A DNA stretch of 64,000 bases, taken from the sequence record MH992122.1. One strand, given 5' to 3'. This document shows positions 2,520-41,790 of this stretch, one piece after another. Under the pieces are notes generated by a model, which worked only from the letters and a program-made list of their open reading frames with translations, was not told where the DNA came from and did no database searches. Numbering within the stretch: the stretch's first letter is position 1; each line of letters begins with the position of its first letter. The position numbers and the translations under genes are program-made. The DNA is from Escherichia phage OLB35.

Positions 2520-3620
2520 TTACGCTGTGAAGATTTTATCCCACATCGCAACAACTGCATCTCGGTTATACTTCTTCCATACTGCTTCAGCACGTTTAAC
2601 TCGAGCTTCGTATGTGTCAGTGAATTCTAATACAGCTTTTGTGTAAAGCGCAACTACTTCTTTCTTAGGAGTAGAGGAATCAATTTCTACACGCACAGTA
2701 TCTGGGTCGTATTCGAATGTCGCATGAGGATAATCCTTAAAAACTAACTGAATTACAGGGACACCTTTAGAGATGGCTTCAATAGAACTATTCTCTACCG
2801 TACCCGTGTCAGGACACGTATTGATAAGTGCTTTAGCTGTTTTAAGACGTTCCATGATTTCACTGTGTGGAGCATCAATAATAACAGGATACTTAGCCGG
2901 TGGTGCCCATTTACTAGGACAATAACCAATACCATTTTCGCCTAGTGCTTTAATCGCTTCAAGAGCAACATCAGTACGACGCATTTTAGTGTCATAACGT
3001 TGTGCACTAATAATCAGATCAGTCGCCGGAAGAATTTCAGGTTTCTCATTCAAACAAATAACCGGATAATCTTCAGCTTCAAACAACGGATTTGCTCGCC
3101 AATAATCATAATCAATTTTGTCAGTCAGACCTGAAGTCATATAACAATATTTGCGTTCAAATTCACGGAAGGCTTTAGTAGGAGCATAACTCTTACCACC
3201 GTTCTTATGAATTTGAATAGTCTGGTCCCAAATTTGAACAATGCCACGAGATACAGGTTCAAATGGTGTTGCCATAAAATTCTTATGAACTTTAGAAAGA
3301 CCTGCGTCTTTAATTGCCTGAACGGTTAGTTTGGTCGGTTCCATTGTAACAACGAAATCGTACTCATTAATGCCGGCTAGTTCAACAATCTTACGAGCCA
3401 TAGTATAACTCATACCTAGACTGAATTTAGTCAGATGACCAACAGGATGATGATTAACCTTCCAATCACCAAATGTGTCATTATCAAAGCCGATATAATC
3501 AATATCAGCACCGATGGACACAAGATATTTCAACACATTTAAATGTACTGCTTCAAGACCACCTTGTACACGTTCTGGGTTAAATGGGACTGCGCGAGAT
3601 GGGATAAACATAACTTTCAT
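2520..3620 (-). CDS. glycosyltransferase (GT-B/GT1-like), candidate DNA hmC glycosyl(arabinosyl)transferase
   Basis: 366-aa ORF; C-terminal ...TGTVENSSIEAISKGVPVI... resembles GT1 nucleotide-sugar binding motif; lies between rIIA.1 and 39 where T4 has gene 60/mobA. Confidence 0.55.
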   Translation of the reverse strand: MKVMFIPSRAVPFNPERVQGGLEAVHLNVLKYLVSIGADIDYIGFDNDTFGDWKVNHHPVGHLTKFSLGMSYTMARKIVELAGINEYDFVVTMEPTKLTVQAIKDAGLSKVHKNFMATPFEPVSRGIVQIWDQTIQIHKNGGKSYAPTKAFREFERKYCYMTSGLTDKIDYDYWRANPLFEAEDYPVICLNEKPEILPATDLIISAQRYDTKMRRTDVALEAIKALGENGIGYCPSKWAPPAKYPVIIDAPHSEIMERLKTAKALINTCPDTGTVENSSIEAISKGVPVIQLVFKDYPHATFEYDPDTVRVEIDSSTPKKEVVALYTKAVLEFTDTYEARVKRAEAVWKKYNRDAVVAMWDKIFTA

Positions 3621-11443: not shown

Positions 11444-12049
11444 TTAATTTAGTTTTAGTTTTCCAGTCAGAGCCTTTAAAAGAAGAACGTTGAGTTTAGT
11501 AAGTTCATGTCCTTCCGCTTGATGTGAGCCGTTAATGCGTGCTTTCAAAGCAACAATTCTAAGTTTAGATTCGTTAGATAAAGGTTGATTTTTCATCATG
11601 TTCGCCATATGCTTAACACGATTTTCACGTTTTGCTCGGATTTTTAAAATAGTACCATAAACCTTTTTGATTTGGGCCCATTTCTTCTCGTCGAGATTAA
11701 GTTTCTCTACTTTACGGGCAGAAGGATTAGCGATACGTCTTGCAATGGCATCACGTTTCTCAATAAGTTCTTCTAATGTTAAATCAGAACGAGCCGTGTT
11801 ATATTTTTTCTTAACTGGGATAACATTACCTTTAATGTAGCCGATATTGTTATCAAAACGTTCTAAGGATAATTTCTCACCTTCAACAGAGTTATTGAAA
11901 GATTCACCTGAGTAAGCGCAGACCTTTTGATCAAGAATGTTTTTAAGGTAGTTAAAGTCTAAGTTAAAATCCTTAGAGCGTCTCTTCGCAGAAGCTCTGG
12001 TGTGGTCAAGACGACGATTTATTTTGTTAATTTTATTATTTGATAACAT
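11444..12049 (-). CDS. hypothetical protein in srd position
   Basis: 201-aa ORF between dda.1 and modA-like gene; own early promoter upstream; identity with T4 Srd not verified. Confidence 0.45.
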   Translation of the reverse strand: MLSNNKINKINRRLDHTRASAKRRSKDFNLDFNYLKNILDQKVCAYSGESFNNSVEGEKLSLERFDNNIGYIKGNVIPVKKKYNTARSDLTLEELIEKRDAIARRIANPSARKVEKLNLDEKKWAQIKKVYGTILKIRAKRENRVKHMANMMKNQPLSNESKLRIVALKARINGSHQAEGHELTKLNVLLLKALTGKLKLN

Positions 12050-15257: not shown

Positions 15258-15380
15258 AATTAACTCCTTTGTTGTTTAATTACAGGTGTATTTATAACTT
15301 AATTAGTAACCATTATCCTGACGTTCAAAGTTGTGTTGGTTTTTCAAGTAGTAAAGTTTAAAGATTTCTTCAGCAGAAAG
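15238..15380. repeat. direct repeat copy A (gene 56 3' end + late promoter + first soc codons)
   Basis: about 143 bp, roughly 95% identical to 15579-15724. Confidence 0.85.
15289..15296 (-). promoter_or_regulatory. late promoter TATAAATA for soc
   Basis: plus-strand tatttata at 15289-15296, about 30 nt upstream of soc ATG. Confidence 0.6.
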
Positions 15381-15598
15381 AGGAGTATTAAATTTCCAGT
15401 GGAGTCTAGTATTATATCCATCAGAGCCGAATGCTTTATTAGCCGGTCTCCCGGCTTTTGCCATGCATAAAAATCAAGTTTCATTTGCAACCCAATCAAC
15501 CATATGTAGATGGTCTGATAATTGACTAACATGCTGAAGCTGATTAGACAGGAGTTTACAAATAAGCTCACTGTTATCATGTTTACATAACCACCCAA
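15344..15598 (-). other. chimeric ORF starting with duplicated soc start (MGGYVN) and reading into the inter-repeat insert
   Basis: 84-aa ORF driven by the duplicated late promoter/RBS; coding status uncertain. Confidence 0.3.
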
Positions 15599-15724
15599 AT
15601 AATCGTAACTCCTTGTTGTTTAATTACAGGTGTATTTATAACTTAATTAGTAACCATTATCCTGACGTTCAAAGTTGTGTTGGTTTTTCAAGTAGTAAAG
15701 TTTAAAGATTTCTTCAGCAGAAAG
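15579..15724. repeat. direct repeat copy B (contains the genuine gene 56 3' end)
   Basis: second copy; carries tatttata at 15633-15640 and an MGGYVN start at 15596-15598. Confidence 0.85.
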
Positions 15725-16168
15725 ACCAAGACCTTGGAACATATTTAGAACGAAATGCAGAATATCAATCATTTCAAATTTAATTTCAAGCTGGTCTTCA
15801 GGAGACAGTTCATCGATACGACGATTTCGATATTCAGCGTGTTGTGCTTTCCATGGCTTCCATACACTGCTAGCGGCTTTTTCACCATTGCTCATACCAC
15901 CAAGTGAAGTCAGCAGTTCACGGAATTCATCATCAATATAATCTTTCTGATTACGCAGCCAATCAACAACATCACCAGCAGTAGCCAATTCATCAGGATG
16001 TTTGTTATGTTCAGGCTTGTCATTTGCCAGACGAACCTGTAAAGATTTCTGCATATCAAGCATTACCTGCAGTGGGTCTTTATCTTCGTGAATCAGAGCA
16101 TTAAAATAAGCTTCTTCTGCTTTATCAACACCAGAAATAAGTTGTGAACATTCATTAAAGTGCGCCAT
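15647..16168 (-). CDS. 56: dCTP pyrophosphatase gp56
   Basis: ORF 15647-16183 trimmed to ATG at 16166-16168 (MAHFNEC...), matches T4 gp56 MazG-like dCTPase. Confidence 0.88.
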   Translation of the reverse strand: MAHFNECSQLISGVDKAEEAYFNALIHEDKDPLQVMLDMQKSLQVRLANDKPEHNKHPDELATAGDVVDWLRNQKDYIDDEFRELLTSLGGMSNGEKAASSVWKPWKAQHAEYRNRRIDELSPEDQLEIKFEMIDILHFVLNMFQGLGLSAEEIFKLYYLKNQHNFERQDNGY

Positions 16169-22592: not shown

Positions 22593-22955
22593 TTAAAAGA
22601 ATTTAAATTTTTTCTTGGTTCGTTCATTAAAAGCTTGTTGTACTTGCATTGTAACACATTTTTCAACATGTGGTGCAAGTTCTGCTTTTCTGTCCTGGTC
22701 AAGAACTGCAAAGTCCATTACGATTTTACCATCAACCCAGTCTAGTTTTGTAATATAGACTATATGATGGGAACCGTCTTCAAGTGTAATCAGAATCTCT
22801 TGAATGACATTTTCCATTGCTGAACGGATAATTTTAAGAGATTCATTAAACACTCGTTCTTTGCGAATGTCTTCCCCTTCCGAAGAAGGGGATTCATCAA
22901 CGATTTCTAGATTTAAATCATCGAGATTATTCATCGAAATCTTCCATTTCGTCAA
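22593..22955 (-). CDS. 40: gp40 head-assembly related protein
   Basis: 120-aa ORF between 41 and uvsX, T4 synteny. Confidence 0.55.
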   Translation of the reverse strand: MTKWKISMNNLDDLNLEIVDESPSSEGEDIRKERVFNESLKIIRSAMENVIQEILITLEDGSHHIVYITKLDWVDGKIVMDFAVLDQDRKAELAPHVEKCVTMQVQQAFNERTKKKFKFF

Positions 22956-24099
22956 GGTCGTTTTCTATATCTGCTGCAGACGGAGCATCAGAAGCTTTAA
23001 CAGGAACTTTAGTTGTTGCTTTGCAATTAATAAGGTCGTTAACAGCGTCATCAACTTCTTTAATAGAAGAGATAGCACCTAGTTTATATTTAGTTTCAAT
23101 TGCATCTCGGAAAGGTTTGTGTTTAAACAACGGTCCCCAGAATTCTACACAATCAGTAGCTTTAGCACGCCACGATTTCTCTTCACGAATCATTTCACCT
23201 GTTTCTTCGTCAAGGAATTCACGAGCATACCAACCGGCTTTAGGCTTAACAACAAATCCAATTTCAGTTGCCATTTCTAACAAGCCACTGAATGGGTCGA
23301 TACCGCCATCAAAATTAACCGTGATTGGGAAAGTAGATTTCTCTTTAACTGTACGAGATTTTTCTGCTTTCAACGTGAAGTCATAACCGGTCAATTCTGT
23401 ACCTTCTTTAACCTGACGTTTAGAGATAAAGAATACAGTGTTAGCAGAGTAAAGAATACCTGTACCACCACCCATAATCTCTTTAGGATATAGTCCGCCG
23501 ATTTCCATTGCTGTATGGTTGATTGCAACACACGGAATATCTTTAATAGTCAGATAAGGGGTCACAATACGGAACAGAGATTTAAGTGCCTTAGCACGGG
23601 ACATATCACCTACGACTTTCTCGTTCAATGCATCTTCGGTTTCTTTCTTAGATGCAGTATTACCGATTGAATCGATAAAGATAATAACTTTATCACCGCG
23701 TTCAATAGCGTCAAGCTGATTAGTCATATCAACTTTAAGTTGTTCGACAGATTGAATCGGAGTATGAACTACACGGTCTAAATCAACACCCATTGAACGA
23801 AAATAAGATTCTGAAGCACCGAATTCTGAGTCATAGAACAAACAGATTGCATCTTTATATTTCTTCATATACGCTGCAACCATAGTTAGTCCAAACAGCG
23901 TTTTAAAGTGTTTAGAAGGTGCAGCAAAAATAGTCAAGCCTGATTGCAATCCTGCATTCAGAGCACCACCTAGTGCAATATTCAACATCGGAATACGAGT
24001 AGGGACTTCATCACGATTATTAAACAGCTTAGACTTAGTCAAGTCTGCAGTCATTTTAGAAGTAGAAGCTTTAATCAGACGAGATTTTAAATCAGACAT
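22927..24099 (-). CDS. uvsX: UvsX recombinase (RecA-like)
   Basis: 390-aa ORF matches T4 UvsX in length and sequence. Confidence 0.95.
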   Translation of the reverse strand: MSDLKSRLIKASTSKMTADLTKSKLFNNRDEVPTRIPMLNIALGGALNAGLQSGLTIFAAPSKHFKTLFGLTMVAAYMKKYKDAICLFYDSEFGASESYFRSMGVDLDRVVHTPIQSVEQLKVDMTNQLDAIERGDKVIIFIDSIGNTASKKETEDALNEKVVGDMSRAKALKSLFRIVTPYLTIKDIPCVAINHTAMEIGGLYPKEIMGGGTGILYSANTVFFISKRQVKEGTELTGYDFTLKAEKSRTVKEKSTFPITVNFDGGIDPFSGLLEMATEIGFVVKPKAGWYAREFLDEETGEMIREEKSWRAKATDCVEFWGPLFKHKPFRDAIETKYKLGAISSIKEVDDAVNDLINCKATTKVPVKASDAPSAADIENDLDEMEDFDE

Positions 24100-24198: not shown

Positions 24199-24747
24199 TT
24201 AACGAGCCCATTTGATGATTTCTGTAATCAAACCATTACGTTCGCTTGCATTAAATCCTATAACTTTGTTAGCACCATCATGATTAAGTAATTGATATGT
24301 TTGGATTTTGTTATGAATTGCAAACTCTTCAAAATGTGAAATGACTGTATTAAAACCGAATGAAGACAAAGTAATAAGGTCGTCTTCAAAACTTTCAGTC
24401 ATTTCGTTACGTGTTAAAATAATTGTGAACACATCATGGTTTTGGCAAAGACGAACATAGTCCTGTTCATAAACGTCAAGAATCGAGTCCGCATCTTGTC
24501 GAATACGTCCATAAACCCAGTTACTAATATATCCACGGTCTAACAGATAAATCTTAGTAGGGTCTAAATAATTCAACATCGTTTCGAAACAACCAACTTC
24601 ATTTCGAGACTTAACATCGAAACGTCCATCAACTGTTCGTTTAGGGAAATCAATCTTTACATATCTTTCACTAATTTCCATTATGTCATTAATGAAAGTT
24701 GTTTTACCGGCATTATCCGGGCCATCTACTAAAATAATTTTAGCCAT
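24199..24747 (-). CDS. P-loop nucleotide kinase-like protein (thymidylate/dNMP kinase fold)
   Basis: 182 aa; Walker A GPDNAGKTT and LDRGY motif; abuts the next gene. Confidence 0.55.
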   Translation of the reverse strand: MAKIILVDGPDNAGKTTFINDIMEISERYVKIDFPKRTVDGRFDVKSRNEVGCFETMLNYLDPTKIYLLDRGYISNWVYGRIRQDADSILDVYEQDYVRLCQNHDVFTIILTRNEMTESFEDDLITLSSFGFNTVISHFEEFAIHNKIQTYQLLNHDGANKVIGFNASERNGLITEIIKWAR

Positions 24748-24748
24748 T

Positions 24749-25648
24749 TTATTCCTCGATTACGACATCTTCGTATTTAGGTATATTATACGGCGAAGAA
24801 ATTAAAGCGTTAAAGTAGATGAACTCACCAAGACCTGGATGGAATACTTCTTCAGGATTTTCGAAATATTGAATCTTCGGACGTCCTTTAAGAATTTGAT
24901 AGTACTCAGTTTTAGTTGGTTTAAAAATTCGAATCAGCGCTTCTTCAGGATACTTATTTCTGTCAAAGCTATTATTTGGATCAGTTATATAAAGCGGTTG
25001 ACCTAATTGAATTGCACATTCAACCACTTGTTCAAAATGATAACACGGATCACTAATTCGAAATGGATGAAAAATACCATCTACATGAATAGGAGCCAAA
25101 TCACCTACAAGACGCTGCATGATGGAAGGACGTATAACTTTCTGCGTTACGATAATCTTATTACCATCTGCACCGGCGTTAACCAGCACTTCTTTTTGAC
25201 GTTCATTCAACACAGTAGTTTGAAGTGAACGATTAACTGACAACATATCGGTTTTTAAGAATTCGTCAATATAAAAACGTGGTTTATTAGGGTCTGCCGT
25301 GATATTGAAATTGAATTCTACATCAAAAGCGCCGTCATATCCAGTGATATCTGTTATTAGAAAATCACAATCATAATAAGCAATTAATGAATCAACCACA
25401 AATTCATTTTCAGACCAGAAATATTTACGAGTGTTATACGCGTTATCTTTATACCATAATGGAACAAACTTAAATTCCGGGAAAAGACGTTCACATTCTT
25501 TAATATCAGATGCATTACGTGGATATGTAATCACATCACCTGGATTAGCACGGTGCAAATGAAGTTGGAAGTTGCCGTCCTTAAGGATAGCATACTGTCC
25601 AGTTTCATAAGACCGCATACTCAAGATTGGTACGCGGAAAATAGCCAT
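24749..25648 (-). CDS. hypothetical protein at the T4 beta-gt position (candidate DNA-modifying transferase)
   Basis: 299-aa ORF between uvsX and gene 42; overlaps gene 42 stop; no recognisable T4 Bgt similarity. Confidence 0.5.
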   Translation of the reverse strand: MAIFRVPILSMRSYETGQYAILKDGNFQLHLHRANPGDVITYPRNASDIKECERLFPEFKFVPLWYKDNAYNTRKYFWSENEFVVDSLIAYYDCDFLITDITGYDGAFDVEFNFNITADPNKPRFYIDEFLKTDMLSVNRSLQTTVLNERQKEVLVNAGADGNKIIVTQKVIRPSIMQRLVGDLAPIHVDGIFHPFRISDPCYHFEQVVECAIQLGQPLYITDPNNSFDRNKYPEEALIRIFKPTKTEYYQILKGRPKIQYFENPEEVFHPGLGEFIYFNALISSPYNIPKYEDVVIEE

Positions 25649-26364
25649 TAGTCAAGGAATCCTTTAACATAATCAAAATCACGTTCAAACACATGGGCAC
25701 TTACCATGGTATGAGTATAATCACCAACTTCTACACCGCATTCGTTAGCGATATAATGAAGTAATTTTCCTTGGAGATAAAAATCCAACTGCATAACAAC
25801 AGCACAGTTCTGAGAACGCATATGACAGTGGGTATAAAGCTTACCATCACGAATATAATAAGTTACTGAGTCAGTACATGGATATTCAAGTGTTTCGTCC
25901 GAATCAAGCAAAGCCTGATCAGAACTTTCTAGAATTTGGAACACAACTCTTCGAGAGTTAGGTTTTTCTTTAAGTTCTTTTAGAAGAGTTGGTAATTGGG
26001 CCGCAATGCGAGGACCATAGAAAGTGTTGAAGTTCGCCGGCAAAACATCTGATTTTGGTTTAGAAATAAATTTAGCGACATTAGGATATGCCTTAAACGC
26101 TTCTTCTGCGTTGGTACCACCAGAAATCATAAACTTCCAGAAGTCTTCGGCATATTCATAAGAGATGCGGTTAATACGTGGGTCGGTCATTTTGAATGAT
26201 GATGGAGTGTCAACAACTACTGTCATAGACCCAATTTCATTACAACGTCCAATACGAGAATCAGTTACGAATTCGGGGTTTTCTAAAATTTCACGATTGA
26301 CTGCTTTAAATGCGGTTTGAAAATCTGCGGCTTTGATATATTTCATTGTGTTATGTTTTCCCAT
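25648..26364 (-). CDS. 42: dCMP hydroxymethylase (gp42-like, divergent)
   Basis: 238 aa; ...PCTDSVTYYIRDGKLYTHCHMRSQN... aligns with T4 gp42 CTNTVQYLIRDKKINAVVNMRSND active-site region. Confidence 0.8.
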   Translation of the reverse strand: MGKHNTMKYIKAADFQTAFKAVNREILENPEFVTDSRIGRCNEIGSMTVVVDTPSSFKMTDPRINRISYEYAEDFWKFMISGGTNAEEAFKAYPNVAKFISKPKSDVLPANFNTFYGPRIAAQLPTLLKELKEKPNSRRVVFQILESSDQALLDSDETLEYPCTDSVTYYIRDGKLYTHCHMRSQNCAVVMQLDFYLQGKLLHYIANECGVEVGDYTHTMVSAHVFERDFDYVKGFLD

Positions 26365-26406
26365 GTTTACCTCAATACAATTTATTATATACTCAATTCA
26401 TAAAGC

Positions 26407-26646
26407 TTATTTGAATTTCTTGACAATGTTGATATAACGTAAAGCTTCAGAATCTATACTTCCAAGAACACTATGAAGGAATGCATCAGTGTAGTATTCC
26501 AATTGAACAGGTTCTTTAATCACTTTAGCCGCTTTGGTTTCAAACAGGCCCATAAGGGCCTTTTTAAGAATTTGTTCGTTAGTGTTCAGTTTCATAGTCA
26601 AAATCTCTTCGTTAAGTTTATAATTAAAACTTTTTCTAGAAATCAT
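26407..26646 (-). CDS. hypothetical protein
   Basis: 79-aa ORF; ATG overlaps upstream stop as ATGA (coupling). Confidence 0.45.
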   Translation of the reverse strand: MISRKSFNYKLNEEILTMKLNTNEQILKKALMGLFETKAAKVIKEPVQLEYYTDAFLHSVLGSIDSEALRYINIVKKFK

Positions 26647-26969
26647 TCCGGGTACCTCAAAGCGTCATCAGAGTTAGTTATATCAATAATAGATATGGAG
26701 TTTTCTGCTAACCCGTTTTTAGATAATTGACGTTTATAATACCTTTCACAATATGTACACGTTGACCCACAGATTTCATTAGCACAATCAAAATCTGGAT
26801 GTCTGAACCACCTTTTTTCTAAAAAGCCATCTAACAAAGAGGTTTCAATATTTACTGTATGTGAAAACTCAGTCTCATTTTCAAGAGTGAAAATAGTCTC
26901 TAAAGGCTTCCACAGTTCTAACAAATTACCTTCAAACTTTTCAGAAGCGTATGCTTCAAGAACTTTCAA
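26643..26969 (-). CDS. Cys-cluster segment (CANEICGSTCTYC), probable C-terminal extension of the upstream ORF
   Basis: 108 codons with no ATG at all (only a TTG start); in frame with 26994-27803 across a single TGA. Confidence 0.45.
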   Translation of the reverse strand: MKVLEAYASEKFEGNLLELWKPLETIFTLENETEFSHTVNIETSLLDGFLEKRWFRHPDFDCANEICGSTCTYCERYYKRQLSKNGLAENSISIIDITNSDDALRYPE

Positions 26970-26993
26970 AATGTAGTCTGTGCTACCTGTACG

Positions 26994-27803
26994 TCATGAA
27001 ACTTTGAATTGAGTGATACCAATATCATTATAAAGTTTCAAATCTTGAGGACGAACAAAACGAGTTCTCAGCCAGTTAAATGGGTCTGTATCACGAGCTT
27101 TAATACAGTGCTGCATTGGATATCCATTTAAGGATTTAGCATCATCAGCGGTAACATCAGTACTATGGAAAATATAGCAAGAGACACGATAGCTACAATG
27201 TGTTGTATACCCTTTACCAGCATTAGAACAGAACTCATTTACAAGAACTTCAAATATTATATTGTTCTTATTGCAAAACTCTGCTGCACGCTTCAGGAAA
27301 GAAACTGAACGGTTCTTATGAATTCCGCAACAGACTTTTTTGATGTTATATTGGTCATGCAAGTATTTGATTTGAGTTACAGCATCGACATGTAGAATTG
27401 TTGAAACTTCAATCTCAATATCTTTATTGACTTCACGAACAATTTCCATAACAACAGGGTTAGCGATAGTAATACGCCATACGCCTATTGACCAAAGATA
27501 CTGAACATAATCCTGAATAGCTTTCTTCTTCCACTCAACTAGTTCTCTTTTTGAACCAGGATTTATCGTGTTGAGTGTATAGTTAAAGCAAATACCTAAT
27601 TCGTTACAACGTTTAACGTAGTCTTCTAACATCTTTTTGTCAACGTCAGGAAGCCTAAAATCAGGTCTGGCTGCTACAAAAGCCATTTCTCTTGTAGAGC
27701 CATATACTTCGTTTATCAAGCTATTAGGATAGGTTTTATTGAGCTCTACGATTTTATCAAGAAGAGCTAAATCAAAATTCGTTCCGATTTTAAAAGTATT
27801 CAT
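26994..27803 (-). CDS. Cys-rich enzyme, possibly peptidase-U32-like TIM barrel (family uncertain)
   Basis: 269-aa ORF; ...EVLVNEFCSNAGKGYTTHCSYRVSC... weakly resembles the U32 signature; ends at in-frame TGA 26994-26996. Confidence 0.5.
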   Translation of the reverse strand: MNTFKIGTNFDLALLDKIVELNKTYPNSLINEVYGSTREMAFVAARPDFRLPDVDKKMLEDYVKRCNELGICFNYTLNTINPGSKRELVEWKKKAIQDYVQYLWSIGVWRITIANPVVMEIVREVNKDIEIEVSTILHVDAVTQIKYLHDQYNIKKVCCGIHKNRSVSFLKRAAEFCNKNNIIFEVLVNEFCSNAGKGYTTHCSYRVSCYIFHSTDVTADDAKSLNGYPMQHCIKARDTDPFNWLRTRFVRPQDLKLYNDIGITQFKVS

Positions 27804-27861
27804 TTTTTTGCATCTCGCGTTAATTGATGCGATGGTTTTTTTGCAGGTCTTACTTAAATTA

Positions 27862-28263
27862 TTATAGATTCGGTTTATACGATTTAAATGTTTCGAATTC
27901 GCCTTTATTCATAAGAGCTTTGAATTCGTCAGGACGCATAGCTTTGTCGTCGATAATCCAATCATATACTGGTTTATGTGTTAGCAAATTATGGTACTTC
28001 AAGCCAATGTTTGCCAAGTTCTGAATCAGACTTGGGAGAATGTCAATTGCTATACGACCAGGACCTACTGACTTCATACCGCGAGCAGTGTAAAGCGTTA
28101 TGGTATGCCCTGCATCATACAGGGCATTAATGGCGGTCACCATTTCGACGTCTGGTTTGAAGTTCACATAATCACGATTGTTATTCCACTCTGTTATACA
28201 ATCATCGACATCAAAACAAAGATTAAGCATGTTTTCTACACGGTGCATTAGATTCGTTCCCAT
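27862..28263 (-). CDS. HAD-superfamily phosphatase (sugar-phosphate phosphatase-like)
   Basis: motif I FDVDDCIT, motif II TLYTARG, Lys and WIIDDKA; alternative ATG at 28246-28248 overlaps upstream stop (TAATG). Confidence 0.65.
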   Translation of the reverse strand: MGTNLMHRVENMLNLCFDVDDCITEWNNNRDYVNFKPDVEMVTAINALYDAGHTITLYTARGMKSVGPGRIAIDILPSLIQNLANIGLKYHNLLTHKPVYDWIIDDKAMRPDEFKALMNKGEFETFKSYKPNL

Positions 28264-29933
28264 TGATGAGTGATATCGCCACCGATTGGACGATAGGAAA
28301 CACCAGTTTCTTTATCAGTTAGTACCCATTTACCAGGATTTTTTGTAATCAGAGTAGCCGTTACAGGTTCTGCTACGTCATAACTAATAGAGCCGTCTTG
28401 AAGTACACGGCCCATGTTACGTAATTGCTTAGTTAGAAGTTCCATACCTTTATAATATGCGGCTACCGCTTTAAGTGGATTATTCTTGAAATAACCACCT
28501 AATGCAATCCAGATAATTGCCACTGCCAAATGATGATACTCGTTAAACGAACTCATCTTTCCATATTTGTAAACTAATGGATTGATGTTAATAGTCACAT
28601 TACAAGTTGTTTCATCAATAGTAAACTGGCCCCAGGTCGGATTAGCGTTGAATTCATCATAACCTGAAACAGCATAAAGCACTTTAGCTTCATCATACAA
28701 TTTTGGCCCGTAAATCTTGGTTTCACCAAAATATCCACGAGGGTCGATAAACTTGACTTCGCCGTTATCAGTAATCATAGTATTACTGAAGTTTGGGTCA
28801 CCGTGAATAACAGAGTACTGTCCCTGAGAACGGTTATGATAACGAATAAGGTGTTCTAAAGCTTGTTTCAGCATTGGCTTCAGCCGTCCAATCTTAGTGT
28901 AGTTCACATGTGTGATTTTACCAAATGAATCAATCAATGGTTGAATGCTTTCACAACGATCAATAACTTTCGTATAGAATTCTTTAGTGAAATCACGACG
29001 AACAGTTTCAGGACTTACAAAATAAGTGTCTGTGCTGAATTTCAGTGCATCTAAAATTGCATCAACAATTTGTGGACGAGCAAGACTTGATTTGGATTTA
29101 ATATATTCAAATGCTGGCTTACCTTTAATGCGTTCCATTTCAAAGTTATTTTCATTAACAGAAACTAACTGAGGAACTGAATCTGATTTCACTTTAAGAT
29201 ACCACGAAATCTCATCTTTCTGAAGAGCTCGTCCCTGTTCGGTTAATGCGAATTTAGTTACAGTTTCTTCACCAATTTCAACTGCATTAAAACTACGATT
29301 AAGTTCACGAACTTCATGAGCTTTTTCGAGTTTAGGCATATCACCTAAATCAATTAGATTCATAAGCTCTGATTTATTGAATGCACTGCCGTAAAGGAAT
29401 TCTACGAAATCACGCCCTTTGCAGTATTCATGAATTTCCTCATCAGTAGAACCCATATAGAATTCCCAGTCTTTGAACTGATAAATTCCTACAACATTAC
29501 CGCCTGTTGAACCTACGTTAGTGATATTTTCACCATCGAAATTATATCGACATTCATCACCCTTAACATAGATTGCGTTAACATTCCAAGACCATGAACC
29601 AAAATCAGGAATAATATCACACCAGTTAACAATTACGTTATGGCCATCTAAATCTTTGTATAATTTAGCAAGAGCATAAGCAGAACCATACGCTTCATCA
29701 ACTGTACGAATAGTCACATTGAACCCTTCTTGCTCACAATAAGCTCGAACAGTTTCAACAAATTTTGAATGAACTACTACAATAATTTCATCTGCACCAA
29801 GGTCAGAATAAATTGTATACAAATTGCTCAGAATAGTGTCTTGTTTATAGTTAACAAGCACCTTAGGAATATGGTGCGTTATTGGATACAAACGAGTTGC
29901 CAGTCCAGCACCAAGAATAACAGCTTTTTTCAT
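28248..29933 (-). CDS. bifunctional sugar-1-phosphate nucleotidyltransferase / anomeric sugar kinase (APH-like)
   Basis: 561 aa; N-terminal MKKAVILGAGLATRLYPITHHIPKVLV (NTP-transferase G-x-G-x-R-L); C-terminal ...IHGDPNFSNTMITDNGEVKFIDPRGYFG (kinase catalytic loop). Confidence 0.8.
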   Translation of the reverse strand: MKKAVILGAGLATRLYPITHHIPKVLVNYKQDTILSNLYTIYSDLGADEIIVVVHSKFVETVRAYCEQEGFNVTIRTVDEAYGSAYALAKLYKDLDGHNVIVNWCDIIPDFGSWSWNVNAIYVKGDECRYNFDGENITNVGSTGGNVVGIYQFKDWEFYMGSTDEEIHEYCKGRDFVEFLYGSAFNKSELMNLIDLGDMPKLEKAHEVRELNRSFNAVEIGEETVTKFALTEQGRALQKDEISWYLKVKSDSVPQLVSVNENNFEMERIKGKPAFEYIKSKSSLARPQIVDAILDALKFSTDTYFVSPETVRRDFTKEFYTKVIDRCESIQPLIDSFGKITHVNYTKIGRLKPMLKQALEHLIRYHNRSQGQYSVIHGDPNFSNTMITDNGEVKFIDPRGYFGETKIYGPKLYDEAKVLYAVSGYDEFNANPTWGQFTIDETTCNVTININPLVYKYGKMSSFNEYHHLAVAIIWIALGGYFKNNPLKAVAAYYKGMELLTKQLRNMGRVLQDGSISYDVAEPVTATLITKNPGKWVLTDKETGVSYRPIGGDITHQWERI

Positions 29934-30194
29934 GTTGTGGTCCTCATTGGTAAGTAGGTGTATTGTACACTATTCTAGTTAAAGCATTCATACTTTGCTT
30001 GTAGTCCAATCATAATCCATCCGATTATAAGAGTCGGAATCATTACTGGAGCCGTTAAGCTCCAGTAGATAGTCATGACAAGCATCAATAGTAAAAGTCC
30101 TATTGTTATTGCTTTCATTGCTCGCCTCGTAACATGGCACCTAGTGCACCACCAGGGTGGAACTTAAGGAAGATCATTAGAGGTAAATCCACGT

Positions 30195-30753
30195 TCAGAT
30201 GAAAGGTTGATAGCGAACGTATCGATAAGCGCTAACAACAATGTAGTGGACATGGTCGGAGCTAAAGAGATTCTCGTCGACCTCTACCGCGATGCCTGTA
30301 CAGAAAGAGTAATCAAAAAGGGCTTCATTTTCTTGCGGAATGTCCGGGTTACAATGCAACAGAATCTGTTTAACCTGAGGACGAATCATACGAAGATGTT
30401 TAGCAACACCTATCATTTCTTCGGTCTTACCAGAACGACTAATATGAATCAACACATCATTAGGCGCAATGAATCCTGCATCACCATGAGAATAATGCCC
30501 GGTGTTCAAATACATGCTAGGAATACCCAATGAAGCAAAATGTCTCGGAAGCTTTAGTTGCGATATTAGCGTTCTTACCGACACCTGTAATAATTACACG
30601 ACTTTCATAATTGCTCAGTCCTGGGCGACGAAGAGTTTCAAGAATAGCATTATATCGGGCAGGGTTTTTACTAATTACTTTAGCCATAGTAGCCAAAGAA
30701 GAAGCTTGTTTTACGATTGCGTCAATAGCGATAGTGATTGGTGTAGTTTTCAT
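30195..30753 (-). CDS. SIS-domain sugar-phosphate isomerase (GmhA/KdsD-like), frame broken at a homopolymer
   Basis: ORFs 30517-30753 (...ITGVGKNANIATKASETF) and 30195-30584 (...ASLGIPS...HGDAGFIAPNDVLIHISRSGKTEE) join into one SIS domain if one T is removed from the run at 30537-30540. Confidence 0.65.
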
Positions 30754-30793
30754 ATTTCTCTCATTTAATTAGTTTACCGTCCATGGCATTATA

Positions 30794-33531
30794 TCAAAAA
30801 TCAAACATATCGAACAGAGATGCTTTCTTCTCGTAATCGAGTTTAGCTGCTGTTGTGAATCCTTCAAGTGGTTTAATAAATGTCTTCTCAAGGAGAACAG
30901 TATAGTCCATCCAATGAAGTACATCATCTTTGATTAAATCGGTGATTTCCGTACCAGAAGGCCATGCGATACATTTATCACCGAACGGGTTTCCATCACG
31001 TAAAGGCAGAACATATACTTTTTCACCTTCTACAACTTGTGGAGCATCAATATTACCTTTGATAGCTCGGTTATATGTCAGAATTCCACGAATATGGAAC
31101 GGACATTTAGGACCAGGGAATCCACCAACGTCATATTTAGCAATGTTATTCGCAGAAGATACCGCCGCGATGCTAATATAATTCAATTGACGGAATTCTT
31201 TTTCAAACTCTTTAAAATATTCTTGTAATGATTCTTCACCTTCTTGAAGCATACGACGAATACATTCTTTAAGAGCTTTCTGTACTGCTTTAGGGGTCGA
31301 AGATTTCTGAGTCTCTAGACCCATGATTTTGAGTTTAGGCTCAGCGTATCTGGTTCCTTCCATATCCCACACGTTTAATGCATAACGTTTCTTACCAGTC
31401 CAGAATCCACCAATACCTTTAGAACCGAGCGGAGGACCAGCGATAGCTTCTCGGTCCATGAACATTAAGTGTTGTTTATTGTTCATGTATTCGCACATTT
31501 CACGGAAACCTCTATCAATAGCCGGTTCCATACGTTCACGTGCAAACTTATCTAAGAAGTCTACCCAATGGTTGGTATCACGGAATTTAGATTCACCGAC
31601 CTTATCAATAATTTTATCAGCAGATACGTAAATAGAGTCTGTATCACCGTAAAGAACGAAAGCTTCACCTTCTGTACCACAAACTTCGTTCAGATATTCA
31701 TTAACTTTACGTTCAATCCACTGTAAAGCCATTTGCCCAAATGTTGTGATTGCAGTAGCATTACGCAAATCATAATAACGGAACCAAACGTTGCCAAGTG
31801 CACCATAAAGCGAGTTGATGAGCAATTTACGGTTAATTTGTGCAGTCATACCTGCAACTTCAGTACGTTGAGCTCTAAACAACATTTCATTAAGAGATTT
31901 AGCAGACAACTTTTTAATCTTTTCTTTAATCTCATCGCTGAAGTCGAAACGATAATCAACATCTAATGGTTCGTCAACAGAAAGATTAGGATTATGTAAG
32001 GCTTCTTTAATTATTTCACCATTACGTTGAGCTGCAAGCATGTAACCTTTATGTTCTTTACGTTGATTAAAGACCTTAGTGATTTCAGTTGGAACTACAC
32101 CATCACGGTCTTTATAATACATCATGCCGTTAGGAGAGCAACTGTACACATCTGAAGGACGTTCAGCGATTGCGTTAATATAATCATGCAATGGAGCTAC
32201 TTTAAACGTTCCTGCTATTGTTTCTGGGCTAATATTCACTTGGCGAATAATACTTGGATACAGAGATGTAAGGTCGAAACTCATTACATATTTGTATCGA
32301 TTTGGAATAGGTTCCTTAACAAAAGCGCCAGGATAAGGTTGAACCTGGTGAGAACGACCTTGTGGAATCACCTTGTTCTGCTCTTTAAGGCTATTAAAAA
32401 TAATAACATCCCATGTTTTAATTGGGCTAAACACAGATTGAATCTGTATCTTAGCATAATAACCCATGTCCAAACTCAAGTTTATGAACTGGCGTTTAGC
32501 ATCAATTTGCAATACACGATACACGTCGATAATGTTATAAGAAATATATCGTTGGTGATTACTTTCACGAAGTTTAGAAATAGGACCGTCATATTTCAGT
32601 TTACCGACATTCAATTCAAATTCTGAAATGTAATCCAGAGAATACGACGGTTGGTTTGTGAAAGAGAATTTTTTGTAAAGGTCGATATAATCAAGAACAG
32701 AGATACCGAACAATGTAATGATTTCACGAGAACCGTACATGTTTTCAATAACTTTAACACGAGTCTTGCGATACTGCAAAAACCTAGATCATTGTCGGGT
32801 GGTGATAAACGTTTCGCAGTAGATTCGCCAAAAATATTCTTGATTCGGTTATACACATATGGAATATCAAATGACTCAACGTTCCATCCAGTCAAAATGA
32901 CAGGAGTTTTCTGTTGCCAGAAGTTGAGATATTCCATCAACAATTCTTTTTCGTTATCAAACGGCATATAAATGATTTTATCAATAATTTCGGATGGAAC
33001 TTCATCACCACCTTGTTCTTGAAGCTTAGCAGCGATTTCAATAGACCATTCTTCTACATTACCATATGGAGAATTCAATAGATCAAATACGTAGAACCTG
33101 TCGTCAATTGAGTCATAATGGGTGATAGCATCAATCGGATGTTTTGCTTGTGACGGCTCAGGGAACCCATCCGGAGATGTTACTTCGATGTCGAAGTTAG
33201 CCACACGAATTTTTGTATGGTCGTATTTGATTTCATAGTTATAAGTGTCAGACAAATACGCCAATTTGAAATCGTCCATACCTAATGCTTCAAGACCAAT
33301 ATCTTCCATGCGTTTAATCCATTGGGAGGCATCACGCATATTAGCGAACAACTTACGAGTACACGGCTTACCGTAGATATCGAAATATTTAGTAGCCTGA
33401 CTTTCTGGACAATGAGCAAACAATGATGGTTTATATTCTACTTCACGAGTACGTTCACGGCCATTAGAATCGATGTAACGTTCAAAAATTGAATCACCAA
33501 TCTGTTCAACCGTTAAGTAAAATTCTTTCAT
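30794..33531 (-). CDS. 43: DNA polymerase gp43 (family B), two overlapping frames
   Basis: ORF 32611-33531 (MKEFYLTVEQIGDSIFERYIDSNGRERTREVEY..., RB69-type N-terminus) and ORF 30794-32779 (...NMYGSREIITLFGISVLDY...YGDTDS...); frame break near 32771-32799. Confidence 0.9.
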
Positions 33532-38927: not shown

Positions 38928-39156
38928 TACACGCTTCAGCCATTTTAAGAATAGAGCCAGGAGTATCGTTGTCCATTATATTAAAGCTAAATTCAATAGC
39001 CCAGTCGGTACAGACATGAACGGCTTTAACTTCATTGCCTTCAACGCGTAATGGCTCAATCCAATACTTGATAGTGTTCTCGAATCCATCATCATCTTTA
39101 ACGTCTATTTCAACTTCAAGCCCAAGCCCAGCATTGTTAAATTCATCTAAAGTCAT
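38899..39156 (-). CDS. hypothetical protein (46.2 position)
   Basis: 85-aa acidic ORF. Confidence 0.45.
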   Translation of the reverse strand: MTLDEFNNAGLGLEVEIDVKDDDGFENTIKYWIEPLRVEGNEVKAVHVCTDWAIEFSFNIMDNDTPGSILKMAEACIEDAYNDED

Positions 39157-40172
39157 TGTGTTGCCTCAATATAAAGTTCGTTGGAATATTTGACCAGCGC
39201 TTCTCTGTCTTCGTCTGAGATATCCGGAATCGCGTCAATATATTCTTTAATGATATCTTGAAGTGATTTAATCTCGATTTCCTGGTCGTCATCAGATTCA
39301 ACACTGTTATCAACTTTAGAAACCATACGAAGAGAGTGAACTACTTTTTCAAGTTCAGATTCAAACTTAGTCAACTCTGAATCAATTTCTGATACTATAA
39401 CACGTACGGCTAGATTAGTATAATCAGAATAATTAATTTTGCCTTTAAACGGATAAGTGATTCGTCGATGCCATGTCGTTTCATTGGGAATAAATTCCAT
39501 ACGTTCAACAACAGTGTCAAATACCCAGAATCCTCGCGGATCGTTCTCATCACCTGCAGTAAGGGTCCATGGTGTCCCAATATATTTGACGTTAGCAGCT
39601 TCAGAGATTGTGTGGAAGTGGCCAGACCAGACTTGTTTATAGGTCTTTAAGAAATCAGGTTCAAGCCCATGAGACTTCATTCCTTTATAGAAATAAAAGC
39701 CGTTCAGTTCCCAGTGCCCAACACAGTACGCTGCGGAAGAAGTCTTGATGTGCTCTAAGATTTCACCTGTATTTTCTTCACACATCCACGGAACGATATC
39801 GATCAGACATCCGTCAAAATCTACAGTAGTTGGATGTTCGTAAATAGTAAAGTTTTCAAATTGAGTTAACAATTCAGAAACAGTGTTAGGTGTTATTGTA
39901 TTCTTAAACGCCATGTCATGGTTTCCTATCGTGACATGAACGTGAATGCCTGCCTTAGAAATCATATCAACTATTTCACGATTGAATTCCATCGTACGAT
40001 GTGTAATTGCTTTACGGACGTCAAACCAATCACCGTACTGAATCCAAGTTTTAATACCGTGTTTCTTAGAGTATTCAATTGCTTGACGAATACCATCACG
40101 TTGAATATCTTGAACCCATGGGTCGTCCTGTTTAACGCCGATATGGAAGTCACCTAAATGTAAAATTTTCAT
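39153..40172 (-). CDS. 47: recombination endonuclease subunit gp47 (Mre11/SbcD-like)
   Basis: ORF trimmed to ATG at 40170-40172 (MKILHLGDFHIG...), 339 aa as in T4. Confidence 0.95.
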   Translation of the reverse strand: MKILHLGDFHIGVKQDDPWVQDIQRDGIRQAIEYSKKHGIKTWIQYGDWFDVRKAITHRTMEFNREIVDMISKAGIHVHVTIGNHDMAFKNTITPNTVSELLTQFENFTIYEHPTTVDFDGCLIDIVPWMCEENTGEILEHIKTSSAAYCVGHWELNGFYFYKGMKSHGLEPDFLKTYKQVWSGHFHTISEAANVKYIGTPWTLTAGDENDPRGFWVFDTVVERMEFIPNETTWHRRITYPFKGKINYSDYTNLAVRVIVSEIDSELTKFESELEKVVHSLRMVSKVDNSVESDDDQEIEIKSLQDIIKEYIDAIPDISDEDREALVKYSNELYIEATQ

Positions 40173-40233
40173 AAGTCTAACGCCGTTATCGCGATGCAAA
40201 TTAAAACCACAGAAATAAATAAAAAAGGAAGCA

Positions 40234-40443
40234 CTAGGCTTCCTTTCCAATTAATACACCGTACAGAGGCTCATTTGAACTTTTAAATCGAATTGGCTTG
40301 TACGTAATAGTTCCTTCGGCTTTAGCTTTATCATAAGACTCTTTAAAACGTCTCATTCTTTCTGCTTTGCCTTTACGGATTTTATCGAAATTTTCAGAAG
40401 TCGGGATGTTCGTCATGCATAAGCACCTCTCAGAAAAAGCCAC
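40234..40443 (-). CDS. hypothetical small protein
   Basis: 69-aa ORF; occupies the region where T4 has alpha-gt. Confidence 0.4.
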   Translation of the reverse strand: MAFSERCLCMTNIPTSENFDKIRKGKAERMRRFKESYDKAKAEGTITYKPIRFKSSNEPLYGVLIGKEA

Positions 40444-40961: not shown

Positions 40962-41177
40962 TTATCTCATTAAATTAAAATAAAAACGTCCGTCCTCTTC
41001 AATACAGAACTCGTACTCAACTGGAGTCCCATTTATCGAAAATGACACGTCATGTGGGTTCAAAGGGTCGATGTCAAAATTAATTTTAAATTCTCGACCC
41101 AACAGTTTTACCAAATAAGGGATTGCTTCGTCAAAAGGTTCTTCTAAGTAGTTAGAGATATCAATTGTCATCCTCAT
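40962..41177 (-). CDS. hypothetical small protein
   Basis: ORF 40962-41255 trimmed to an ATG downstream of the gene 55 stop. Confidence 0.4.
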
Positions 41178-41718
41178 ATAAAAAATCCAAACTAGGCGAA
41201 TCGCTAACAACTTCCTTCTTTTCAGCCCCAGGAGCTTTATAAGCGGATTCTTCATAATGCGTCATTTTATCGTAGATGTCTTGAATAAACGTTTCATCTA
41301 CCAACGCTACCATATCATCGTCATGACTGTCGTAGACATTATGAACGAAGTAACTATATTTCTTTGCAACTTCCTTACGTTCTTTTTTGATACGTTGGAC
41401 AAAAGCATTAAAACAAGCTCGAGTTATGTATGCATGTGGGTTATTGTACTTAGTTTCGTCGAAATTATGAAGTCCCTTAATAGAGGCTTCAATCCCATCT
41501 GCAATCATCTCCTGCTTCCAAGACTGGGTATATCCTGAAAAGTTGAAACGTTTGGACAGGCCTTCGGCGATAAGCATAATTGCTAAACCGATGGTATCAT
41601 TCTGACGAATAATTTTGTTTGGGTCTTTATTATTTAAGAGCTCCTTTTTCCACTCGATTATAGCGGCGAGAAGCTCTTTATTATTCACATAGTTATTTTT
41701 AGGTTTTTGTTCAGTCAT
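41161..41718 (-). CDS. 55: late sigma factor gp55
   Basis: ORF trimmed to ATG at 41716-41718 ([17 protein letters not shown]...), 185 aa, near-identical to T4 gp55; AAGAGG RBS. Confidence 0.93.
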
Positions 41719-41790
41719 AAGTACCTCTTGGCTCAATTCATAGGTCTATTATATCATAATATTTAGAGACCTATCTTAAAGCACGAGATA

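Follow-up and report, generated by a model that had tools for sequence, protein, structure and literature searches.

Phage T4 carries glucosylated 5-hydroxymethylcytosine (hmC), produced by a thymidylate synthase (TS)-fold enzyme acting on dCMP with folate, a dCTPase and GT-B glycosyltransferases that draw on host UDP-glucose, and its genes beta-gt, 42 and imm occupy the slot between uvsX and gene 43. Arabinose was found on the DNA of phage RB69 by Thomas et al. in 2018, who read the modification as arabinosyl-hmC and whose candidates were ORF003c for the transfer and ORF53_52c with ORF055c for UDP-arabinose synthesis (PMC6024577). Mass spectrometry (MS) and nuclear magnetic resonance (NMR) of RB69 DNA later placed the arabinose in ether linkage to 5-hydroxycytosine (5hoC) and not to hydroxymethylcytosine (Lee et al., NAR 2026, PMC13326640), an independent paper on Mosigvirus NP calls the earlier hmC assignment erroneous (PMC13390438), and mono- and di-arabinosyl-5-hydroxy-dC have been identified in the virion DNA of both phages by liquid chromatography–MS and NMR (PMC13326640, PMC13390438). 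Here, we describe the corresponding region of Escherichia phage OLB35 (sequence record MH992122.1), a stretch of 64,000 nucleotides hereafter called the window, in which positions 24199–30790 very probably hold the arabinosyl-5-hydroxycytosine DNA hypermodification cluster of Mosigvirus.

The window belongs to Mosigvirus, the RB69-like coliphages: the 6.6 kb of the cluster aligns from end to end with about 150 Mosigvirus genomes at 97–98.8% nucleotide identity. An identical gene order recurs in 153 phage records at 95–99% identity, and this recurrence speaks against a pattern arisen by chance. It is also the order of RB69 gp45–gp55 plus gp3 and of the HY126 Afh cluster, and the TS homolog and the HAD phosphatase are near-identical to HY126-type structures (PDB codes 9iqc and 9iqw). 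By tblastn, the proteins of the cluster share 97–99.7% identity with those of RB69, apart from gp49 (88.6%) and the pieces of a frame-broken arabinose-5-phosphate isomerase (92–100%). RB69 and HY126 are the near-identical phages in which steps of the pathway have been shown, and these steps are assigned to the window by 97–99% identity. The AfhE/AfhF pair is present, as are a GT-B glycosyltransferase beside the synthase and a second glycosyltransferase elsewhere in the window; the arabinose-5-phosphate isomerase, found in most cluster members and absent in Dhakavirus, is present with a broken frame.

All genes of the cluster lie on the minus strand, flanked by uvsX (22927–24099) and gene 43. 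An initial annotation of this DNA, made from the sequence alone, had listed the genes of this interval and described a phage-encoded sugar-nucleotide module in place of T4 beta-gt, 42 and imm; all of the listed genes were found and the description stands, although the system it offered as a prediction had already been published. The cluster was described in 2018, its biochemistry followed in 2025–26, and OLB35 adds one more member. The HY126 Afh cluster and phages Bas46/LC53 are said to have their primary reports in He et al. (Nat Chem Biol 2026) and Mahler et al. (Cell Host Microbe 2025), respectively.

Base and sugar branches of the cluster

The TS homolog matches Pfam PF00303 (1.9e-15) and is approximately 97% identical to the solved structures 9iqc, 9ir2 and 9iqu. 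Its signature residues Glu160, Cys163, Asn186 and Asp194 stand at the positions of Leu143, Cys146, Asp169 and Asn177 of canonical thymidylate synthase, which gives it the catalytic Cys, the Asn at the Asp169 position and the Asp at the Asn177 position that characterize 5-hydroxy-dCMP (5hodCMP) synthases. Asn at the position of Asp169 in Escherichia coli ThyA is diagnostic of these synthases and occurs in every one tested, and RB69 gp48 forms 5-hydroxy-dCMP whose oxygen derives from 18O2 and retains a flavin through purification (PMC13326640). By these residues and by its 98.7% identity to RB69 gp48, the TS homolog is a flavin/O2-dependent 5hodCMP synthase and not, as the initial annotation had it, a divergent gp42-like dCMP hydroxymethylase, and for this reason the DNA of the phage is predicted to carry arabinosyl-5-hydroxycytosine.

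It is highly improbable that hmC is the product of the enzyme and then receives a pentose from a phage-made nucleoside diphosphate (NDP) sugar. Such an activity would suit a member of the TS family with a dCMP-selecting Asp at the Asn177 position, like that of T4 gp42, and would agree with the 2018 report of arabinosyl-hmC in RB69 (PMC6024577), but it is contradicted by the Asn at the Asp169 position, by the 18O2-derived oxygen and bound flavin of gp48 and the published NMR and MS of RB69 DNA (PMC13326640), and by the later judgement that the hmC assignment was erroneous (PMC13390438). Of the hypermodified hmC first suggested for this phage, the phage-made NDP-sugar is retained and the hmC is not; the arabinosyl-hmC that had been cited for RB69-like phages is that of the 2018 report, since corrected to arabinosyl-5-hydroxycytosine (PMC13326640, PMC13390438).

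Compared with T4, the cluster shares the uvsX/gene 43 slot, a TS-fold enzyme working on dCMP, a dCTPase and GT-B glycosylation. It differs in the hydroxyl (not hydroxymethyl) group, in the Asn at the Asp169 position, in the use of flavin and O2 instead of folate and in a phage-made arabinose donor instead of host UDP-glucose. Neither T4 glucosyltransferase gene has a counterpart: there is no beta-gt beside uvsX in the window, and the interval between gene 47 (39153–40250) and gene 55 (41161–41736) holds only open reading frames (ORFs) of 97 and 107 residues, none of alpha-gt size, which bears out the earlier remark that a T4-type alpha-gt is missing there. Rhizobium phage RL38J1, the DNA of which contains hexosyl-5-hydroxycytosine, likewise has a TS-type 5hodCMP synthase with the D169N exchange and glycosylates the 5-hydroxyl group, but with galactose/glucose via UDP-galactopyranose mutase and not with arabinose; RL38J1 has no U32 protein.

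On the sugar side, an intact homolog of the SIS-domain protein matches the NCBIfam profiles for KpsF/GutQ (8.5e-32) and KdsD (3.4e-30), with no GmhA model among its NCBIfam matches, which points to arabinose and not heptose as the sugar. The HAD protein matches PDB entries 9iqw (4e-87) and 1xpj (6e-10) as well as TIGR01689, a capsule biosynthesis phosphatase (4e-13). The 561-residue protein contains PF00483/PF12804 at residues 3–107 and weak kinase-family matches at residues 308–409, with the C-terminal kinase motifs HGDPNFSN at residue 377 (HxDxxxxN) and DPRG at residue 397; a PDB sequence search with this protein returned distant nucleotidyltransferases only. These searches place the 561-residue, HAD and SIS proteins in the families expected of them, and the HAD phosphatase and the fusion of a nucleotidyltransferase with an APH-like kinase that had been read from motifs are both upheld. 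For the isomerase, the family had been named correctly, whereas the gene had been taken as intact, three single-base insertions having been missed.

In phage HY126, according to the summary given in PMC13326640, arabinose-5-phosphate is converted to arabinofuranose-1,5-bisphosphate by the kinase domain of AfhE, then to arabinofuranose-1-phosphate by the phosphatase AfhF and finally to UDP-arabinofuranose by the nucleotidyltransferase domain of AfhE; the same summary describes this AfhE/AfhF enzyme logic as reconstituted. By identity, the HAD protein of OLB35 would be an arabinose-1,5-bisphosphate 5-phosphatase and the 561-residue protein a combined arabinose-5-phosphate 1-kinase and UDP-arabinose pyrophosphorylase.

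Bacterial ADP/GDP-heptose synthesis (GmhA, HldE or HddA/HddC, GmhB) follows a similar plan, with a SIS isomerase, an anomeric kinase, a HAD phosphatase that takes off the distal phosphate and a nucleotidyltransferase, kinase and transferase being fused in HldE as they are here. The OLB35 pathway departs from it in its KpsF/GutQ-type isomerase, in its pentose substrate and in a kinase domain that resembles APH/choline kinases and is neither ribokinase-like nor of the GHMP type. The initial annotation had let heptose and arabinose fit equally well; the enzyme logic and arabinose are borne out, and heptose is not. That the module makes NDP-heptose is almost certainly wrong, since beyond the shared logic it could appeal to a weak HddC match of the nucleotidyltransferase domain (7.6e-5) and to a RefSeq label, 'phosphoheptose isomerase', which sits on the HAD phosphatase gene and is a misannotation, whereas the SIS protein is of the KpsF/GutQ and KdsD type (1e-30 to 1e-32) without a GmhA model and arabinose has been chemically identified in the DNA of RB69 and phage NP.

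The 299-residue ORF had been recorded as an unknown and, as far as sequence families go, it is one: no match was found in Pfam, NCBIfam or a PDB sequence search. Its AlphaFold2 model, with a predicted local distance difference test (pLDDT) score of 95.4, points to a transferase that had gone unrecognized, the top Foldseek matches in the PDB being the retaining GT-B enzyme MshA (PDB code 3c4q, 1e-6), 7qsg and 6kih, and a further match being 9ir0, 'phage HY126 glycosyltransferase with UDP'. On the basis of this predicted fold, we propose that the ORF encodes a GT-B DNA arabinosyltransferase that adds the first arabinose. A second arabinosyltransferase has been proposed in the homolog of ORF003c (PMC6024577, PMC13326640). 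The initial annotation had left out this second transferase and the 79-residue ORF of the cluster.

Taken together, a pathway with two converging branches can be drawn. The TS-fold enzyme would hydroxylate dCMP at C5 with flavin and O2, a gp1-type dNMP kinase encoded elsewhere would phosphorylate the 5-hydroxy-dCMP, the gp56 dCTPase, which belongs to the published pathway list (PMC13326640 Table 1), would clear dCTP so that only modified cytosine enters the DNA, and the polymerase would build in 5-hydroxy-dCTP. In the other branch, the SIS isomerase would convert ribulose-5-phosphate to arabinose-5-phosphate, the C-terminal kinase domain of the 561-residue protein would form arabinofuranose-1,5-bisphosphate, the HAD phosphatase would take off the 5-phosphate and the N-terminal nucleotidyltransferase domain would yield UDP-arabinofuranose. 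The 299-residue GT-B protein may then transfer the first arabinose to the 5-hydroxyl group, and the ORF003c homolog the second.

Several points weigh against this assignment. On 5hoC DNA in vitro, the transferases showed no activity when tried singly (PMC13326640), and both UDP as the donor and the order of the transferases are proposals in the literature. The chemistry of the virion DNA is inferred by identity to other phages, and a sequence cannot show chemistry. Finally, as the record is written, the isomerase is broken and the U32 protein is truncated.

The U32 protein and a possible hydroxylation without oxygen

The characterized U32 proteins comprise RlhA (5-hydroxycytidine in 23S rRNA), TrhP (5-hydroxyuridine in tRNA) and UbiU/UbiV (anaerobic ubiquinone hydroxylation), all of them Fe–S proteins tied to hydroxylation that requires prephenate. 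With UbiU/V, the oxygen was shown to come from prephenate, and the routes of both UbiU/V and TrhP are said to work without O2. A member of this family is encoded between the HAD phosphatase and the synthase in OLB35. It had been called a Cys-rich enzyme, a description that holds for its ten invariant cysteines, although its family and an in-frame TGA had both escaped notice. The intact homolog matches PF01136 (7e-11), and its model (pLDDT 93.2) has the U32 protein Mk0906 (PDB code 5d88) as the top fold match in the PDB; a PDB sequence search gave no match. When the phage U32 profile was aligned with four E. coli U32 proteins using hhalign in local mode, RlhA was the best match (probability 83%, E value 8.8e-6, 296 columns), with C203-x5-C209 of the phage protein aligned with C169-x6-C176 of RlhA. 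The phage protein also has an extra C-terminal cluster, Cx4Cx3Cx2C, at residues 340–352.

Genes that neighbour U32 in related phages supply a possible link to prephenate. In Klebsiella phage KLB31, a 79-residue gene between U32 and the synthase encodes a true AroQ chorismate mutase, with a PF01817 match of 1.3e-9 that passes the Pfam cut-off, and tblastn finds a chorismate mutase in the same slot in 48 Straboviridae phage records from 11 genera, where it and U32 are inserted as a pair between the HAD gene and the synthase. The hosts of these phages are Klebsiella, Enterobacter, Edwardsiella, Yersinia, Serratia, Erwinia, Pectobacterium, Providencia, Morganella, Kosakonia and Escherichia (phage EcS1). 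Prephenate is the sole product of chorismate mutase. On a metagenomic phage-like contig, a U32 homolog of 54% identity is directly followed by DAHP synthase (2.6e-70; locus L015, 8001–9891), the enzyme with which this pathway starts, and an epimerase is also adjacent. Metagenomic U32 homologs in general are 50–58% identical to the phage protein, and several have neighbours that include genes of nucleotide metabolism or DNA glycosylation: dCMP deaminase, thymidylate kinase and PolIII-alpha (L005, L016); NT5C, a deoxynucleoside kinase (dNK), PnuC, a radical SAM protein and a second U32 gene (L006); and a TAGT DNA glycosyltransferase, dCTP deaminase/dUTPase and UDP-galactopyranose mutase (L017, 5777–14179). 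No TS homolog lies within 8 kb of this TAGT-linked U32 homolog.

The distribution of U32 is narrower than that of the synthase. Phage records with the synthase number 373, of which 57 are from Acinetobacter and 20 from Rhizobium phages; those with U32 number 221, all at least 80% identical and, among the hosts listed, all from Enterobacterales or Shewanella. U32 is absent from the clusters of the Acinetobacter and Rhizobium phages, and the HAD gene and the synthase are direct neighbours in Acinetobacter phage Apostate, with no gene separating them. The hosts of these two groups are aerobes. Without U32, the Acinetobacter phages still build arabinosyl chains of equal or greater length on 5hoC (PMC13326640), and the protein is therefore dispensable for the product as such.

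These observations lead us to suggest, tentatively, that U32 proteins of the RB69 gp50 family may be prephenate-dependent, O2-independent pyrimidine C5 hydroxylases that supply 5-hydroxycytosine in an anoxic host. These phages infect gut bacteria and carry an anaerobic ribonucleotide reductase, and the published hydroxylase needs O2. In anoxia, the flavin/O2-dependent synthase would be idle and U32 would provide the 5-hydroxycytosine, so that the phage would mirror the paired aerobic and anaerobic enzymes of E. coli, UbiI/H/F with UbiU/V and TrhO with TrhP. The likeness lies in a flavin/O2-dependent TS homolog and a U32 protein within one cluster, in the best match to RlhA and in the chorismate mutase, and hence prephenate, that the clusters of relatives add. 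The phage protein is unlike the E. coli U32 enzymes in its Cys spacing and its extra C-terminal cluster, and the window is without chorismate mutase.

A hydroxylase role has further points against it. The canonical 4Fe-4S spacing, CX6CX15CX3/4C, is not matched exactly, and the other two ligands are unaligned; some E. coli phages, such as Dhakavirus IME341, have no U32; the slot next to U32 in Mosigvirus is occupied by an unrelated 79-residue ORF and not by chorismate mutase; and the correlation with host oxygen rests on a few clades. Neither chorismate mutase nor DAHP synthase is encoded in the window. In the literature searched, the scope of which did not extend to the primary papers on HY126 and Bas46/LC53, no paper ties U32 or chorismate mutase to the pathway.

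The 79-residue ORF, gp49, was considered as a diverged chorismate mutase and rejected: it has no Pfam match at E ≤ 10 (no CM_2), a BLASTP E value of 6.7 and an hhalign probability of 0.2% against seven phage chorismate mutases. Homologs of gp49 are confined to closely related phages, in some of them truncated, and its 88.6% identity to RB69 compares with 98–99% for the genes beside it.

An alternative, in which U32 takes no part in hydroxylation and works as a peptidase or as a 'sugar or heterocycle reductase', seems rather unlikely. The family name and database labels do read peptidase or collagenase, and the imperfect Cys spacing is as such a reading would have it, yet among the U32 members covered that have an assigned cellular role none acts in it as a protease, and RlhA, TrhP and UbiU/V are linked to prephenate-dependent hydroxylation. 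The reductase label is that of RB69 gp50, given without discussion in PMC13326640 Table 1; against it stands the dispensability of U32 for the sugar chemistry in Acinetobacter phages, and neither label fits the chorismate mutase beside U32 in 48 genomes or the DAHP synthase beside a homolog.

Disrupted genes in the record

Compared with phage CCU7, four of the 83 coding sequences in the window are disrupted, namely those for U32, the isomerase, the DNA polymerase and a homolog of the Srd anti-sigma factor. In U32, GGA has become TGA at 26994–26996 (relative to p000v) at the invariant glycine G270, with the loss of 116 residues that include the fully conserved four-Cys cluster. The isomerase gene carries three +1 insertions, near 30173, 30269 and 30537–30541, which split it into ORFs of 78 and 129 residues and scatter its tblastn matches over three frames. 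Gene 43, on the minus strand, contains a 26 bp insertion at 32773–32798 (CCGACAATGATCTAGGTTTTTGCAGT on the coding strand) inside the His codon that follows KRLSP; this is not a local duplication, it gives overlapping ORFs of 306 and 661 residues and it occurs in none of 167 related phage records. The Srd homolog has a +2 insertion (AA) at 11478 relative to CCU7 and CAU_ECP01, with a frameshift after residue 190.

The isomerase, U32 and polymerase lesions are probably artefacts of the record and not biology, because one of the frameshifts hits the essential polymerase. Once the three additional bases are taken out, the isomerase frame is intact and the codon changes specific to the window are nine synonymous to one nonsynonymous, and the gene must for this reason have been under selection until very recently; an old pseudogene is ruled out on the same grounds. 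No public assembly was found to encode the truncated U32 product or the 306-residue gp43 fragment, and a 169 kb contig (GCA_012439925.1), 97.9% identical and with the intact 561-residue protein, has none of the lesions. From the RB69 cluster, that of OLB35 differs only in the state of the record: sequencing errors split gp46/47 and gp52/53 in the RB69 reference, genes that are whole in the window, and in the window it is the isomerase, U32 and gp43 that are interrupted.

It is improbable that the lesions are real and that OLB35 is a natural variant which has lost its own isomerase and U32 and draws arabinose-5-phosphate from host KdsD/GutQ. Dhakavirus IME341 keeps the core cluster without either gene, both of which are therefore dispensable in some E. 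coli phages, none of the lesions lies in a long homopolymer, and the isomerase segment is the most divergent of the cluster. Such a loss is nevertheless hard to reconcile with the frameshifting insertion in the essential polymerase of the same record and the +2 frameshift in Srd, with the recoverable isomerase frame and its synonymous excess, which leave no room for long decay, or with the lack of a public assembly encoding the truncated products. The divergence of the isomerase segment (30100–30800) is such that its best match is 96.7% identical and 152 other records are 90–95% identical, compared with 97–98.8% for the entire cluster, which suggests a mosaic allele.

Gene content, relatives and annotation

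The features discussed above are collected in Table 1. The P-loop kinase-like gene noted initially is confirmed by its Walker A motif; the match is to PHROG 761 'thymidylate kinase' (1e-44), and RB69 gp45 is named 'nucleotide kinase' in the pathway table (PMC13326640 Table 1). The second transferase gene sits between rIIA.1 and gene 39.

Table 1. Genes assigned to the OLB35 cluster and pathway, with chorismate mutase genes of relatives (positions in the window unless a locus number, L, is given)
Feature	Position	Strand	Evidence
P-loop nucleotide kinase, 182 residues, RB69 gp45 homolog	24199–24747	-	Walker A GPDNAGKT; PHROG 761; 98.4% identical to RB69 p045
GT-B glycosyltransferase, 299 residues, RB69 gp46:47; proposed first DNA arabinosyltransferase	24749–25648	-	AlphaFold2 fold; 98–99% identical to RB69 p046+p047
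Predicted 5-hydroxy-dCMP synthase, 238 residues, TS fold, flavin/O2-dependent	25648–26364	-	PF00303; 98.7% identical to RB69 gp48
Fast-evolving ORF, 79 residues, RB69 gp49	26407–26646	-	88.6% identical to RB69 p049
Peptidase-U32-family Fe–S-type protein, RB69 gp50; TGA-interrupted	26643–27803	-	PF01136 (intact homolog)
HAD phosphatase, 128 residues, RB69 gp51/HY126 AfhF	27862–28248	-	PDB 9iqw; TIGR01689; DVD motif at residue 13
Predicted bifunctional kinase/nucleotidyltransferase, 561 residues, RB69 gp52:53/AfhE	28248–29933	-	PF00483/PF12804; kinase motifs; 99.5–99.7% identical to RB69 p052/p053
Hydrophobic membrane ORF, 47 residues, RB69 gp54 homolog	29975–30118	-	97% identical to RB69 p054; LC53 and KLB31 homologs annotated as transmembrane
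Predicted arabinose-5-phosphate isomerase, SIS domain only, RB69 gp55; frame broken	30115–30753	-	KpsF/GutQ and KdsD matches (intact homolog)
Proposed second GT-B arabinosyltransferase, RB69 ORF003c homolog	2520–3620	-	98.6% identical to RB69 p003; PHROG 8302
gp56 dCTPase	15650–16168	-	97% identical to RB69 p028
Chorismate mutase genes in loci of relatives	L008 5783–6022; L009 7001–7240; L010 6821–7165; also L018–L021		

Across genera, the core of the cluster consists of the kinase/nucleotidyltransferase, the HAD phosphatase, the P-loop kinase, the synthase and a glycosyltransferase, with the isomerase, U32, chorismate mutase and extra glycosyltransferases as accessory genes; the core without isomerase and U32 is what the E. 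coli phage Dhakavirus IME341 has. A seg-type homing endonuclease gene lies between HAD and U32 in Serratia phage LC53 (L010, 5015–5653) and in Edwardsiella phage PEi26 (L019, 1195–1833). Outside the cluster, the window has a 344 bp insertion relative to CCU7 and CAU_ECP01 at about 15306–15720, between soc and gene 56, which holds a second, 80% identical copy of the final 25 codons of gene 56 (15306–15380) and looks like a scar of recombination or of a mobile element.

Public labels for the cluster are wrong or inconsistent: the HAD phosphatase appears as 'phosphoheptose isomerase' or 'polynucleotide kinase', the glycosyltransferase as 'RNA polymerase binding protein', the synthase as 'dCMP hydroxymethylase/thymidylate synthase', the 561-residue enzyme as 'GlmU' and U32 as 'peptidase' or collagenase. 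The practical value of the assignments presented here lies in the correct annotation of these mislabelled records. If the U32 protein is indeed an oxygen-independent hydroxylase, this would explain how full replacement of cytosine persists in anoxic hosts and why phages carry a chorismate mutase, and U32 hydroxylases would gain a substrate, a soluble nucleotide, with which to set up the in vitro assay that the field lacks.

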